Assembly (NCBI RefSeq): GCF_002854065.1
Contig: NZ_CP024147.1
Length of the DNA: 64,000 nt
DNA from: Escherichia coli
GTDB lineage: Bacteria > Pseudomonadota > Gammaproteobacteria > Enterobacterales > Enterobacteriaceae
Strand: one strand, 5' to 3'
Each line of letters begins with the position of its first letter. The first letter of the stretch is position 1. Both the position numbers and the translations under genes were made by a program. The notes under the pieces were generated by a model that saw nothing but the letters and a program-made list of their open reading frames with translations, searched no databases and was not told the origin of the DNA. Below, one piece after another: positions 7,440 through 16,426 of this stretch.

Positions 7440-8936
7440 TTAATCCTCTCGGGCAAAAAGTGCCTCTATAAAGTCGTCCGCCTTAAACGGACGCAAATCC
7501 TCAATACGTTCGCCGACACCAATGTAGCGGATAGGGATACCAAACTGGTCAGCCACCGAGAAAATTACCCCGCCTTTCGCCGTGCCGTCCAGTTTCGTTA
7601 GCGTGATGCCGGTTAAGCCAACAGCTTCGTGGAACAGTTTGGCCTGGCTTACCGCGTTCTGCCCGGTGCTGGCATCAATAGTCAGCATAACTTCATGCGG
7701 CGCTTCAACGTCGAGTTTCTTCATCACGCGGACGATTTTCTTCAACTCTTCCATCAGATGCGATTTGTTCTGCAGACGTCCGGCGGTATCGGCAATCAGG
7801 ACGTCGATATTACGCGCTTTAGCTGCCTGAATGGCGTCGAAGATAACAGAGGCGGAATCCGCACCGGTATGCTGGGCAATCACCGGAATATTGTTGCGCT
7901 GACCCCAGACCTGAAGCTGTTCAACCGCTGCTGCACGGAAAGTATCGCCCGCCGCCAGCATCACCGATTTACCCTGCTGCTCAAACTGACGCGCCAGCTT
8001 ACCAATCGTCGTGGTTTTACCCACACCGTTGACGCCCACCATCAGGATCACGAACGGCGTTTTACCTTCAACATTCAGCGGCTCATCGACTTTCGCCAGA
8101 ATCTCGCCCATCTCTTCTTTCAGCAGGCCATAGAGCGCCTCGGCATCACGAAGCTGCTTGCGGGATGCGCCTTCCGTCAGATTGGTGATAATTTTACGTG
8201 TGGTTTCCACGCCCACATCGGCGATCAACAGCTGTTCTTCCAGCTCTTCAAAAAGATCATCGTCGATTTTTTTACCGCGGAACAGGCTGATAAATCCGGA
8301 ACCGAGGTTTTCTTTGGTTTTTAACAGGCTGCGTTTCAGGCGCGCGAAGAAACCTTCTTTGGTCGGCTTTTCCTGCTCCTGAGCAATTTCTCCCACCGGC
8401 TGCTCTTCTTCTGCCGGAGGAACCACCATCACCGCCTCTTCTGCCGCTTCGGCAGCCAGCGCCTGTGTTTCCAGCTCTTCGTCGGTGATTTCTTCTTTAG
8501 CCGCTTCTTCTTCCGCCGCTTCGACAATCTCTACGGTTTCCGCTTCAGCCTGCCACTCTTTTGGCGAAACCTCTTCGGCGTTGACGTCTTCCGGCAACGG
8601 CAGTTCTTCACGTTCGATAGCCACTGGCTCCGGCGTTTCTTCTACGACCGGTTCCGGCTGTGCAACGACTTCCGCTTCAGGCTGCGCTTTTTCACTTTCA
8701 GCTACCTGTTCAGTGACTTCCACAACTTCGGCAGCAAAAGTTTCCGCCTCGGCTTCAGTATGCGCCTGCGGCTGCTCTTCAACGGCTTGTTCAGAAGCCT
8801 TCACAGGCTCTTGCGCCTGAACGATTTCTTCTACAACCGGTTGTTCATTCTGAACTTCTGTCTCTTTTTCCGGGGTCTGCTCTTTTTGACCAAAGCCCAG
8901 CCAGGAAAAAAAGCCACGTTTTTTTTCTTTCGCCAT
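7440..8936 (-). CDS. ftsY: SRP receptor FtsY
   Basis: 498-aa ORF with acidic E/A/Q-rich N-terminal domain and C-terminal SRP-GTPase NG domain (GVNGVGKTTTIGKLA, DTAGR). Confidence 0.95.
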   Translation of the reverse strand: MAKEKKRGFFSWLGFGQKEQTPEKETEVQNEQPVVEEIVQAQEPVKASEQAVEEQPQAHTEAEAETFAAEVVEVTEQVAESEKAQPEAEVVAQPEPVVEETPEPVAIEREELPLPEDVNAEEVSPKEWQAEAETVEIVEAAEEEAAKEEITDEELETQALAAEAAEEAVMVVPPAEEEQPVGEIAQEQEKPTKEGFFARLKRSLLKTKENLGSGFISLFRGKKIDDDLFEELEEQLLIADVGVETTRKIITNLTEGASRKQLRDAEALYGLLKEEMGEILAKVDEPLNVEGKTPFVILMVGVNGVGKTTTIGKLARQFEQQGKSVMLAAGDTFRAAAVEQLQVWGQRNNIPVIAQHTGADSASVIFDAIQAAKARNIDVLIADTAGRLQNKSHLMEELKKIVRVMKKLDVEAPHEVMLTIDASTGQNAVSQAKLFHEAVGLTGITLTKLDGTAKGGVIFSVADQFGIPIRYIGVGERIEDLRPFKADDFIEALFARED

Positions 8937-9085
8937 TTGCGACTACACTCCTCGCTGTTGCTTCATGGCACAGCGTTAACGCTATGTACATAGCAGCTAA
9001 AAAAATGATGAAATAGTCTATCACTTAACTTAATTCACATCACCGCCTGCAAGTATGTGTTATCTGGCGGATTGAGCAATTTATC

Positions 9086-9682
9086 ATGAAAAAACCGAAT
9101 CATTCCGGCAGCGGCCAAATCCGCATTATTGGCGGGCAGTGGCGAGGCCGTAAACTCCCGGTTCCTGATAGCCCAGGTCTGCGCCCCACCACCGACCGCG
9201 TACGCGAAACGTTATTTAACTGGCTGGCTCCGGTCATTGTTGACGCCCAATGTCTGGATTGCTTCGCCGGAAGCGGCGCACTGGGGCTGGAAGCGTTATC
9301 ACGCTACGCTGCGGGGGCCACGTTGATTGAGATGGATCGTGCAGTTTCTCAGCAGTTAATTAAGAACCTGGCGACACTAAAAGCAGGCAATGCACGCGTG
9401 GTGAACAGCAACGCAATGTCATTCCTGGCGCAAAAAGGCACACCGCATAATATCGTGTTTGTCGATCCACCGTTCCGCCGTGGCTTGTTAGAAGAGACGA
9501 TAAATTTACTGGAAGATAACGGCTGGCTGGCTGATGAAGCCCTGATTTATGTCGAAAGCGAAGTCGAAAACGGTCTGCCCACTGTTCCGGCAAACTGGTC
9601 ATTACATCGGGAAAAAGTGGCGGGTCAGGTGGCTTATCGGCTGTATCAACGCGAAGCACAAGGAGAAAGTGATGCTGATTAA
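9086..9682 (+). CDS. rsmD: 16S rRNA m2G966 methyltransferase RsmD
   Basis: 198 aa, MKKPNHSGSGQIRIIGGQWRGRKL..., SAM-MTase motifs (LDCFAGSGALGLEA, VFVDPPF). Confidence 0.93.
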   Translation: MKKPNHSGSGQIRIIGGQWRGRKLPVPDSPGLRPTTDRVRETLFNWLAPVIVDAQCLDCFAGSGALGLEALSRYAAGATLIEMDRAVSQQLIKNLATLKAGNARVVNSNAMSFLAQKGTPHNIVFVDPPFRRGLLEETINLLEDNGWLADEALIYVESEVENGLPTVPANWSLHREKVAGQVAYRLYQREAQGESDAD

Positions 9683-9941
9683 TATTGGACGTTTGTTAAT
9701 GCTCTGCGTTTGGGGATTTTTAATCCTCAACCTGGTGCATCCCTTCCCGCGTCCGCTGAATATTTTCGTTAACGTGGCGCTGATTTTTACCGTGCTGATG
9801 CATGGTATGCAGCTGGCGCTGTTGAAATCGACCTTGCCGAAAGATGGCCCGCAGATGACCACCGCCGAAAAGGTGCGGATTTTCCTTTTCGGCGTGTTTG
9901 AACTGCTGGTCTGGCAGAAGAAATTTAAAGTTAAAAAATAA
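9672..9941 (+). CDS. yhhL: Small inner-membrane protein YhhL (DUF1145)
   Basis: ORF 9549..9941 trimmed to MLINIGRLLMLCVWGFLILNL... (89 aa); start overlaps rsmD 3' end by ~11 nt. Confidence 0.8.
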   Translation: MLINIGRLLMLCVWGFLILNLVHPFPRPLNIFVNVALIFTVLMHGMQLALLKSTLPKDGPQMTTAEKVRIFLFGVFELLVWQKKFKVKK

Positions 9942-9943
9942 CC

Positions 9944-10303
9944 TTATTGTTTGCCTACAAAGCTGACAAAGCGCGTTCCTTTATAGCTCAGCGTACCTTT
10001 ATCGCCCACTGTCAGGGCGTGGTACTGCTGGGCGTCGAGGCGAAACGTTTGCTCCATTCCTCCGCTTTGCGGTTTGAAGCTTGCCTCATAGCGTATACTG
10101 GTGCCTGCCGGAGTCACTTCTTGCTGGCGCGAACGGCGATCGTTAATCGGTTTTTCCCGCTTGTTGCTCACCACCACCAGCTTTTGCTGGAGCGGAGCCA
10201 TATCATTATCAGCTTTTTCCCGTCGCTGTTGCATAAAACGAAACGATGCGGCGACGACAATTAAGCCAATGATAACAATAAAGAAAAGAGGTGGTTTGCT
10301 CAT
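9944..10303 (-). CDS. yhhM: Uncharacterised membrane-anchored protein YhhM
   Basis: 119 aa, N-terminal TM helix MSKPPLFFIVIIGLIVVAASF; convergent with yhhL with only ~2 bp between stops. Confidence 0.85.
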   Translation of the reverse strand: MSKPPLFFIVIIGLIVVAASFRFMQQRREKADNDMAPLQQKLVVVSNKREKPINDRRSRQQEVTPAGTSIRYEASFKPQSGGMEQTFRLDAQQYHALTVGDKGTLSYKGTRFVSFVGKQ

Positions 10304-10443
10304 CTTTATCCCTCATCGGAAAATGCGGAATTAAGCATACCCTGCCAGTTATGGTGTTGTCATCCGTCCACCCTCGCCACTAAACTGGAAGCAAGACCGT
10401 AGGCATTCCGCCTACGAAAAAATAACGAATTCAAGGAACTAAG

Positions 10444-11070
10444 ATGCTTTGGTCGTTTATCGCTGTCTGTCTTTCCGCATGGCTATCTGTGGATGCATCG
10501 TATCGTGGGCCAACCTGGCAACGCTGGGTGTTTAAACCGTTAACCCTTCTTCTCCTGCTGTTACTGGCCTGGCAAGCGCCGATGTTCGACGCCATTAGCT
10601 ATCTGGTGCTGGCAGGGCTGTGCGCCTCACTGCTGGGCGATGCGCTAACCCTGTTGCCACGTCAACGTCTGATGTACGCCATCGGCGCGTTTTTCCTCTC
10701 GCACCTGCTGTACACCATCTATTTCGCCAGTCAGATGACGCTCTCTTTCTTCTGGCCTCTGCCACTGGTGTTGCTGGTTCTGGGCGCGCTGTTACTGGCG
10801 ATTATCTGGACGCGGCTGGAAGAGTATCGTTGGCCCATCTGCACGTTTATCGGCATGACGCTGGTGATGGTGTGGCTGGCAGGTGAACTGTGGTTCTTCC
10901 GTCCGACCGCTCCGGCACTCTCTGCGTTTGTCGGCGCTTCGTTGCTGTTTATCAGTAACTTTGTCTGGCTGGGTAGCCACTATCGCCGACGCTTCCGTGC
11001 GGATAACGCGATTGCTGCGGCCTGCTACTTTGCCGGTCACTTCCTCATCGTCCGCTCGCTGTATCTCTGA
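10444..11070 (+). CDS. yhhN: Inner membrane protein YhhN (TMEM86 / lysoplasmalogenase family)
   Basis: 208-aa polytopic membrane ORF; position between yhhM and zntA. Confidence 0.88.
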
Positions 11071-14647: not shown

Positions 14648-15205
14648 ATGCGCAATCTGGTTAAATATGTCGGAATTGGCCTGCTGGTTATGGGGCTTGC
14701 GGCCTGTGATGATAAAGACACTAACGCTACGGCGCAGGGTTCGGTCGCGGAAAGTAACGCTACCGGGAATCCCGTCAACCTGCTTGATGGCAAGTTAAGT
14801 TTCTCGCTGCCAGCGGATATGACCGACCAGAGCGGTAAGCTGGGAACGCAGGCCAATAACATGCATGTCTGGTCCGACGCCACCGGTCAGAAAGCAGTCA
14901 TCGTCATCATGGGCGATGATCCGAAAGAAGATCTGGCGGTGCTGGCGAAGCGTCTGGAAGATCAGCAACGTAGCCGCGATCCGCAGCTGCAAGTGGTAAC
15001 CAATAAAGCCATTGAGCTGAAAGGTCACAAAATGCAGCAGTTAGACAGTATTATCTCCGCGAAAGGCCAGACGGCGTACTCTTCCGTTATTCTGGGTAAC
15101 GTGGGTAATCAACTGCTAACCATGCAAATTACGCTGCCAGCTGACGATCAGCAAAAAGCGCAGACAACCGCAGAAAACATCATTAATACGCTGGTTATTC
15201 AGTAA
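14648..15205 (+). CDS. dcrB: Periplasmic lipoprotein DcrB
   Basis: ORF 14594..15205 trimmed to [22 protein letters not shown] (lipobox), 185 aa. Confidence 0.85.
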
Positions 15206-15208
15206 GTT

Positions 15209-16426
15209 TTAAGATGATGAGGCGGCCTCAGGGACGTGTTCCGGAGGCCGTTTTTTTAATCGCCACGTCAGTAATAACGCGATTGCGACCAGTCCCGCCG
15301 CCGCCAGATAAATCACCGGTACGCCCGCCCAGCTCATCACCAGCCCAGCCAGTGGTCCGGTCACGCCAAGCGATAAATCCATAAATACGGTGTAAGTTGC
15401 CAGCGCCGCCCCCTGATTTTGCTGCGGAACCGCTTTTACCGCCACTACACCCAATGCCGGGAACACCAGCGAAAACCCGGCCCCCGCCAGTAAGACGCCG
15501 ATTTTCGCCATCCACGGCATAGTCGCCACGCCAACCAGTAGCAGGCCGATTATCTCAACGCTAAAGCAAATCATCGCTACGTTTAAGCCGCCGATACGGT
15601 TAATGCCGTTAGGGAATAACAAACGCGTACCGACAAACGCACAGCTAAACAGCGTCAGCGCGAAAGCCGCACCGTCCCAACCTTTAGCGTCATAAAACAG
15701 CGTGATAAAGGTGGCGATGACGCCAAATCCGGCGGAAGCCAACGCCAGCGCCATACCGTATAGCCAGACGCGCCCAAGCACCGCGCGAAACGGCAGCGGT
15801 TTGCCTTTACTGGCTTTTACCGTCGGACGCGGGATCGCCAACAAAATGGCCACCAGCGCCACGGCCATAATGATTAACGCTAACGCCTGCAAGCCGCCCC
15901 AGTGATAAAACACGACACCTAACGGCGCACCCATCGCCATCGCCCCATAAGTGACAATACCGTTCCACGAAATCACCCGTCCGATATGCAGCGAGCCAAC
16001 CACGCCAACGCCCCACAGGGTCGATCCCGTTCCGGCAAAACTTTGCCCAATCCCAAGGATGACGCGTCCCAGGCAAAGTAATAACAGGCTGATGACGGGC
16101 AGACTGGCGGTTAATCCTGCCGTCAGATATCCCAGACCGCTCAAAAAGCAGCCGCATAAACCGAAGACGACAATCTTTTTGGGGCCCAGCAAATCGGCGT
16201 AACGTCCGGCATGAGGACGGCTCAGCAAGGTGGCAAAATATTGCAGGCTGATAACCAATCCTGCCCAGAAAGCGCTAAAGCCCATCACATCATGGACATA
16301 GCCCGGTAATACAGCGAGCGGCAACCCGATGGTGAGGTAGCTGGCGAAGTTAAACATGACAATGGAGACAATGCGCAAATTCAGGCGCAATCCGTTTAGC
16401 GCGGGTTCGGCTACGGGTTCGGGCAT
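15209..16426 (-). CDS. yhhS: MFS transporter YhhS
   Basis: ORF 15209..16468 trimmed to MPEPVAEPALNGLRLNLRIVSIVMFNF... (405 aa), 12-TM MFS-like. Confidence 0.85.
   Translation of the reverse strand: MPEPVAEPALNGLRLNLRIVSIVMFNFASYLTIGLPLAVLPGYVHDVMGFSAFWAGLVISLQYFATLLSRPHAGRYADLLGPKKIVVFGLCGCFLSGLGYLTAGLTASLPVISLLLLCLGRVILGIGQSFAGTGSTLWGVGVVGSLHIGRVISWNGIVTYGAMAMGAPLGVVFYHWGGLQALALIIMAVALVAILLAIPRPTVKASKGKPLPFRAVLGRVWLYGMALALASAGFGVIATFITLFYDAKGWDGAAFALTLFSCAFVGTRLLFPNGINRIGGLNVAMICFSVEIIGLLLVGVATMPWMAKIGVLLAGAGFSLVFPALGVVAVKAVPQQNQGAALATYTVFMDLSLGVTGPLAGLVMSWAGVPVIYLAAAGLVAIALLLTWRLKKRPPEHVPEAASSS
15224..15262 (+). terminator. Intrinsic terminator of dcrB (overlaps yhhS 3' end on the other strand)
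   Basis: gaggcggcctc...ggaggccg stem followed by ttttttt. Confidence 0.55.

Follow-up and report, generated by a model that had tools for sequence, protein, structure and literature searches.

Genes at the junction

The stretch of Escherichia coli DNA considered here is 64,000 nt long (RefSeq assembly GCF_002854065.1, contig NZ_CP024147.1) and will be referred to as the window. Its positions are used throughout, and are converted to those of MG1655 (NC_000913.3) by an offset of +3,595,307. At 9086-9682 on the plus strand is rsmD, which specifies the 16S rRNA m2G966 methyltransferase, as judged from the ORF listing, the Pfam match of its product to Cons_hypoth95/RsmD and the RefSeq annotation, and whose TAA stop is read directly at 9680-9682. 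It is followed on the same strand by yhhL (9672-9941; ORF listing, Pfam and NCBIfam), whose 89 aa product is a DUF1145 small membrane protein and whose stop is also TAA, at 9939-9941. Facing them from the minus strand is yhhM (9944-10303; ORF listing, Pfam/NCBIfam and RefSeq), encoding a 119 aa DUF2500 protein with its stop at 9944-9946, TTA as read on the plus strand. On direct reading the spacer between the two convergent stops consists of the 2 bp CC at 9942-9943. An earlier note on this DNA had put the yhhL and yhhM stops about 2 bp apart; the distance is exactly that, and all its coordinates for the three genes at the junction are exact to the base when set against the sequence and the ORF listing.

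The RefSeq annotations of the identical strain and of MG1655 have the three genes in matching geometry. Over 9000-10450 the window matches strain 100416 at 100% identity. Misannotation of the yhhL or yhhM stop was considered and ruled out: both stops are annotated alike by RefSeq and in MG1655, and 59 of the 60 E. coli genomes sampled are colinear over the region, with no indels. At its other end YhhM begins Met-Ser-Lys-Pro-Pro (MSKPP...; window 10292-10303) and 5′ of the gene, on the minus strand, there is a promoter-like site, ATGACA-18-TATGCT (10334-10363), identified by consensus match only.

A start within the end of rsmD

The claim that yhhL starts within the last 11 or so nucleotides of rsmD is confirmed by both sequence and annotation. 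From the yhhL ATG to the end of the rsmD TAA the two coding sequences share 11 nt (9672-9682, plus strand; sequence, ORFs and RefSeq), and with respect to rsmD the ATG (9672-9674) is in frame +2. A Shine-Dalgarno sequence for yhhL, AAGGAG, is read directly at 9660-9665 on the plus strand, within rsmD codons for Gln-Gly-Glu; it is 6 nt from the ATG and its duplex energy with the anti-Shine-Dalgarno is -8.5 kcal/mol. Two alternative yhhL starts, GTG at 9669 and an in-frame ATG at 9549, are both open, but the homologues align from ATG 9672 and the Shine-Dalgarno spacing also suits ATG 9672.

The arrangement is an old acquaintance, the overlap having been remarked on already in 2012 (PMC3384335), and it is well kept. 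An alignment of 17 YhhL homologues led to at least 80 species loci across the Enterobacteriaceae. Among the loci listed, rsmD and yhhL are juxtaposed in 80 of 80 and an AAGGAG-like Shine-Dalgarno precedes yhhL in every one. Of these loci, 51 have an overlap of 11 nt, 13 one of 17 nt and 5 one of 7 nt, and in the remaining 11 the overlap lies between -11 and +1 nt. Same-strand overlaps are common: approximately 10 are present in the MG1655 counterpart of the window, among them those in liv, ftsEX, nik, rhsB/yhhH and rbbA/yhiI. As in coupled overlapping operon pairs, rsmD and yhhL are co-oriented, the second start is 11 nt before the first stop, there is a consensus AAGGAG in the upstream coding sequence, and the arrangement is conserved across the Enterobacteriaceae; it differs from them in extent, 11 nt as against the commonest overlaps of 1 and 4 nt. 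To judge from this layout, translation of yhhL would be coupled to termination on rsmD.

The convergent gap

How unusual is a gap of 2 bp between convergent stops? In the MG1655 stretch matching the window the 11 convergent gaps are 2, 3, 41, 48, 53, 66, 101, 164, 187, 243 and 314 bp. That of yhhL-yhhM is at the low extreme, yet it has a twin in dcrB-yhhS, with 3 bp, just 5 kb away. Within the species the junction is fixed: of 5426 complete E. coli genomes all but one (5425) have the region, and a junction-spanning query of 751 nt is colinear in 5424 of the 5425. The sole non-colinear genome has ISApl1 between yhhL and yhhM. This is E. coli MRY15-131 (NZ_AP017620.1; L085, 1935-3016), where the IS30-family element sits exactly at the junction, leaves yhhL two codons shorter and parts the two genes by approximately 1 kb; in effect it is a natural ‘spacer insertion’ mutant.

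The twin deserves a few words. At dcrB-yhhS (window ~15205-15209), the second ultra-tight convergent pair, the stops are 3 bp apart and dcrB has an intrinsic terminator, a GC stem with a T7 run at ~15221-15257 and -24 kcal/mol, within the last codons of yhhS; a dcrB 3′ end has been mapped at MG1655 3610564 in the TRS study (PMC10687069). Like yhhL-yhhM, the pair is convergent, is on the published excludon list discussed below and has a 3′-end element in the opposite coding sequence. The difference is that the element embedded there is a canonical intrinsic terminator, whereas the yhhL-yhhM hairpins have no U-tract.

Mapped transcript ends

That transcripts of the convergent genes must overlap at their 3′ ends, as had been proposed from the sequence, is borne out by published maps, and 3′ ends lacking such overlap are not what these maps display. 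On the minus strand, the 3′ ends of yhhM mRNA lie at 9839-9851 (MG1655 3605146, 3605156 and 3605158; Term-seq and TRS). In the Term-seq data of Adams et al. (2021; PMC7815308) there is an end at 3605158(-), window 9851, antisense to yhhL, with 26,915 reads, listed as a single entry in a supplementary file spanning three growth conditions; a plus-strand 3′ end antisense to yhhM is absent from their list. The TRS study of 2023 (PMC10687069) puts minus-strand termini of yhhM at 3605156 (window 9849) and at 3605146 (window 9839), with a 3′UTR of 106 nt. It also supplies, in its Supplementary Data 3 and 4, the primary 3′ terminus of the rsmD-yhhL mRNA at 3605347(+), window ~10040 (10040-10041), with a 3′UTR of 100 nt. 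The sequences printed in the TRS study, like the double-stranded RNA reads considered below, were placed by locating them in the window. The yhhL mRNA thus ends about 100 nt into yhhM and the yhhM mRNAs 93-106 nt into yhhL. From ends at 9839-9851 on the minus strand and ~10040 on the plus strand it follows that the transcripts overlap by ~190-200 nt, the region common to both mRNAs being their complementary 3′UTRs at 9839-10040. At 9754 (MG1655 3605061) is the peak of a minus-strand Rho termination region, to which supplementary file 2 of Adams 2021 gives a Rho score of 3.0 with p 2.3e-7.

Two other datasets touch on the overlap. ExcludonFinder (PMC12288877) counts both yhhL-yhhM and dcrB-yhhS in a set of 165 convergent pairs whose transcription overlaps in 50% or more of 58 RNA-seq sets from MG1655. 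Huang et al. (2020; PMC7373196) used p19 to capture RNase III double-stranded RNA and found a cluster in yhhM, at window 10182-10262 (U00096.2 3603511-3603591), which they classed as ‘3′ & Full’. This bears on the suggestion of the earlier note that there is potential for antisense interference: double-stranded RNA of the RNase III type was captured inside yhhM, but the cluster is past the mapped primary yhhL 3′ end and outside the 9839-10040 core overlap. It therefore derives from readthrough or from another antisense RNA and not from the 200-nt core overlap.

Stem-loops in the opposing coding sequences

If the spacer is too short to hold a terminator, what sets such sharp ends? A consensus scan of 8800-10600 found no intrinsic-terminator-like site on either strand between 9110 and 10396. 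A single palindromic bidirectional terminator in the 2-bp spacer is likewise absent, and in its place are two separate hairpins, one in each coding sequence, approximately 75 nt apart and 45-100 nt past the respective stops. The earlier statement that no room is left for separate terminators is true of the spacer, but the 3′-end structures are accommodated inside the opposite coding sequences.

Hairpin A (9851-9909, minus strand; inverted repeat, folding and recoding) is in the yhhM 3′UTR and is encoded within yhhL. Its core is a perfect 11 bp with arms at 9863-9873 and 9884-9894, and the extended arms, 9848-9873 and 9884-9909, form a 26-nt inverted repeat that is 73% complementary. The yhhM 3′UTR of 96 nt, from 9946 down to 9851, has a folding energy of -28.9 kcal/mol with z -4.1, and the Term-seq end at 9851 falls exactly on the base of the extended stem, at its 3′ side. 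Hairpin B (9986-10033, plus strand; -25.7 kcal/mol) is in the yhhL 3′UTR and encoded within yhhM. In a blind sliding-window fold of 9050-10450 it was among the two most stable plus-strand windows; it was found before comparison with the TRS supplement, which prints the same structure just 5′ of the yhhL end, which is ~7 nt past the hairpin. Each mapped end, then, sits just past a stem-loop.

Neither stem-loop is followed by a T-run, the tails being GUCGAGGCG on the plus strand and GGGCCAUCU on the minus, and so each is a stable stem-loop that has no U-tract and is just 5′ of a steady-state 3′ end. On the transcribed strand, stretches with more C than G lie 3′ of each hairpin, as expected for rut sites. 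The junctions of E. coli and E. albertii have no REP palindrome (of the GCCGGATG...CATCCGGC type), and an Rfam scan gave only a chance match below threshold, to sR44, whose 16.7 bits fall short of the gathering score of 45.

Are the hairpins more than what the two proteins require of their codons? Host codons were resampled with codon usage derived from the window and folded on the strand of each 3′UTR. None of 2000 synonymous recodings was as stable as that observed for hairpin A, nor any of 2000 for hairpin B (z -4.9 and -4.6), a test that is partly post hoc as the hairpin regions were picked after scanning. Among the 60-nt windows of the whole 64 kb, hairpin A ranks in the top 1.3% and hairpin B in the top 0.5%. 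Hairpins of comparable stability also occur in rsmD, in the windows 9135-9194 and 9260-9319.

With a convergent pair that has no spacer, and a stem-loop just 5′ of each end, one has to consider the proposal that such ends are set by programmed head-on collision of RNA polymerases at places fixed by nascent stem-loops (Ju 2019; Wang 2022) rather than by Rho and trimming; a stem-loop in the nascent RNA is what that model needs. In it a single bidirectional element lies between the gene boundaries, however, while here there are two hairpins ~75 nt apart. Further, the two transcripts run past one another, with an offset of ~200 nt between their ends, so that each polymerase goes beyond the point at which the other stops, and on the minus strand a Rho termination region is documented. 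The genes are also most likely of low expression, so that collisions would be rare. Collision seems to us a very improbable source of these ends.

Comparison with relatives

Among the loci listed, yhhM is not adjacent to yhhL in roughly 20, and where the two are neighbors the distance between them is anything but fixed. E. coli and E. albertii have 2 bp, Salmonella 21 bp and E. whittamii 137 bp; most of the other loci listed have 17-138 bp, and Buttiauxella, Pluralibacter, Cedecea and Franconibacter have -4 to 7 bp. GC-rich palindromes, many of them REP-like, are usual in the longer spacers, and there the best hairpin after yhhL starts at offset 0-12, within the spacer. As an aside, the spacer is a hotspot for REP-like palindromes of the form GCCGGATG...TTATCCGGCC, found in E. 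whittamii (L005), Salmonella (L007/L010) and Citrobacter (L006-L032), and in several species they extend into the yhhM stop and last codons. In having REP-like GC-rich palindromes the spacers of Salmonella, Citrobacter, Trabulsiella and E. whittamii are akin to REP-type intergenic hairpins elsewhere, and it is likely that these palindromes fill the same 3′-end role that the embedded hairpins have in E. coli and E. albertii, whose junctions differ in having neither spacer nor REP.

At the homologous codons hairpins A and B are strong (-20 to -27 kcal/mol) only in E. coli and E. albertii among the loci listed. In E. whittamii, with its REP-bearing 137-bp spacer, they are weaker, at -17.5 and -13.7 kcal/mol, and in nearly all the other loci listed they are weak or absent, mostly -7 to -18 kcal/mol for hairpin A and -5 to -19 for hairpin B, and this is so even for loci that encode the same amino acids. 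E. fergusonii, E. marmotae and E. ruysiae are outside the 80 loci listed, and the lineage argument is therefore confined to E. coli, E. albertii and E. whittamii. The Buttiauxella genomes with gaps of 0-7 bp lack a strong plus-strand hairpin. In nine Escherichia sequences, a small set with codon position uncontrolled, variable positions number 5 of 68 in the stems, 8 of 39 in the loops and 19 of 114 outside (27 of 153 for non-stem positions together), and 3 of the 5 stem changes preserve pairing. The seven E. coli sequences closest to the window, MG1655 included, vary in the loops only. Such a pattern would fit selection keeping embedded 3′-end structures where a spacer is absent, a reading to which we give only moderate credence.

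Could it all be a neutral by-product of loss of the spacer, the hairpins being due to chance or to codon demands and the 3′ ends mere decay intermediates? The spacer is certainly highly variable in relatives (-4 to 138 bp) and often made of mobile REP-like sequence, similarly stable hairpins are present elsewhere in rsmD, and one E. coli strain, MRY15-131, tolerates an ISApl1 at the junction at a cost to yhhL of two codons. But two independent hairpins, 45-100 nt past the stops, both coincide with mapped 3′ ends; both are outliers with respect to synonymous recodings; they are missing in species with identical amino-acid sequence; and the stems are invariant in the seven E. coli strains nearest to the window. 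We consider the neutral reading unlikely.

At the other extreme the junction may be envisaged as a functional excludon, in which the ~200-nt overlap together with readthrough of yhhM makes YhhL and YhhM mutually exclusive, through interference and RNase III, with the hairpins as selected parts of the device. As is the case for convergent excludons, yhhL-yhhM is on the published list, its transcripts overlap and double-stranded RNA has been captured at the locus; it differs in its spacer of 2 bp, where E. coli excludons average 95 nt. Membership of the E. coli excludome and the ‘3′ & Full’ class of the yhhM cluster speak for such a device, as do the restriction of strong hairpins to Escherichia genomes with the 2-bp gap, their weakness in E. 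whittamii and the lesser variation of the stems (5 of 68 against 27 of 153, with pairing kept in 3 of 5 changes). On the other side, the literature searched reports neither anticorrelated expression nor an rnc-dependent effect for the pair. In other genera the gene pair persists with hairpins in the spacer, which would curtail any overlap, and overlap is thus no conserved requirement; the Buttiauxella genomes with 0-7 bp gaps have no strong plus-strand hairpin; and the comparison of variation is a small one of nine sequences in which codon position is uncontrolled. An excludon in this full sense is doubtful. A bolder historical version, in which Escherichia lost the spacer, selection at synonymous sites built two replacement hairpins, and an obligatory ~200-nt overlap now couples rsmD-yhhL negatively to yhhM by way of RNase III and interference, strikes us as decidedly unlikely.

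A model for the junction

We think it quite probable that the locus is the 3′ end of an rsmD-yhhL operon set against convergent yhhM, where ends come about by readthrough, Rho and trimming to embedded hairpins. On this model rsmD and yhhL would be co-transcribed, and yhhL translated from the ATG 11 nt inside rsmD by means of the embedded AAGGAG. Because both that start and its Shine-Dalgarno are inside the end of rsmD, ribosomes finishing rsmD would act at the yhhL start, by unfolding it, by reinitiating there or both, which would amount to translational coupling. With no intergenic terminator to stop it, each RNA polymerase would cross the 2-bp spacer and enter the opposite gene. Once the ribosome leaves at the stop, the RNA that follows would be untranslated and antisense, and would be ended mainly by Rho. 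For the minus strand there is the Rho termination region of Adams 2021 to point to; for the plus strand, which has no entry in that study, Rho would presumably act in like manner.

From there 3′-to-5′ exonucleases would trim the RNA back to hairpin A in the case of yhhM, or to hairpin B in that of rsmD-yhhL, a step that we take from the model of Dar and Sorek (2018). That work describes precise ends just 3′ of stable stem-loops without a U-rich tail, protected from PNPase and RNase II, with rut sites downstream. Set beside that description, the junction has the likeness of a U-tract-free stem-loop directly 5′ of each mapped end and, on the minus strand, of a Rho region and C-rich sequence downstream; it differs in that its stem-loops are in the opposite gene's coding sequence and not in an intergenic 3′UTR, and in that Rho is documented on the minus strand only. 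Trimming to the hairpins would yield the sharp steady-state ends at 9839-9851 and ~10040, with 3′UTRs of ~100 nt in the partner's coding sequence.

Given readthrough and ends set by hairpins, the two mRNAs would share ~200 nt of perfect complementarity, with some plus-strand readthrough probably running further over yhhM. The complementary 3′UTRs and the yhhM readthrough may form substrates for RNase III. Any regulatory effect of the overlap on YhhL or YhhM is probably modest.

It is as well to keep a sense of proportion. The feature is known and ordinary: its genes, overlap, overlapping transcripts, 3′ ends and double-stranded RNA are all in public annotation or datasets. What is new here is that the mapped ends are tied to hairpins that are Escherichia-specific and encoded at synonymous sites, together with the contrast with the spacer hairpins of relatives. 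The junction serves as a worked example of how, where there is no spacer, structures for mRNA ends can be written into a partner's coding sequence by synonymous codon choice, related genera meeting the same problem with hairpins in the spacer. It is possibly also a small test case for selection at synonymous sites and for how far convergent overlap regulates.

Other features nearby

Two further palindromes flank the three genes. In the first codons of ftsY, on the minus strand at window 8900-8936, the palindrome A8-CGTGGC-T7 comes right after the start codon, and the Term-seq data of Adams 2021 (PMC7815308) have a 3′ end internal to ftsY at MG1655 3604211, window ~8904, past that palindrome; the combination looks like a 5′-proximal attenuator or a short stable fragment. 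The yhhM-yhhN intergenic region has, at 10397-10417, a GC-containing hairpin of 9 bp, CCGTAGGC-ATT-GCCTACGG, with a flanking A-run on the plus strand. It registered as no more than a weak terminator-like site on the minus strand, and 47 nt downstream of it, inside yhhN (window ~10464), is a plus-strand Term-seq end with a low count.
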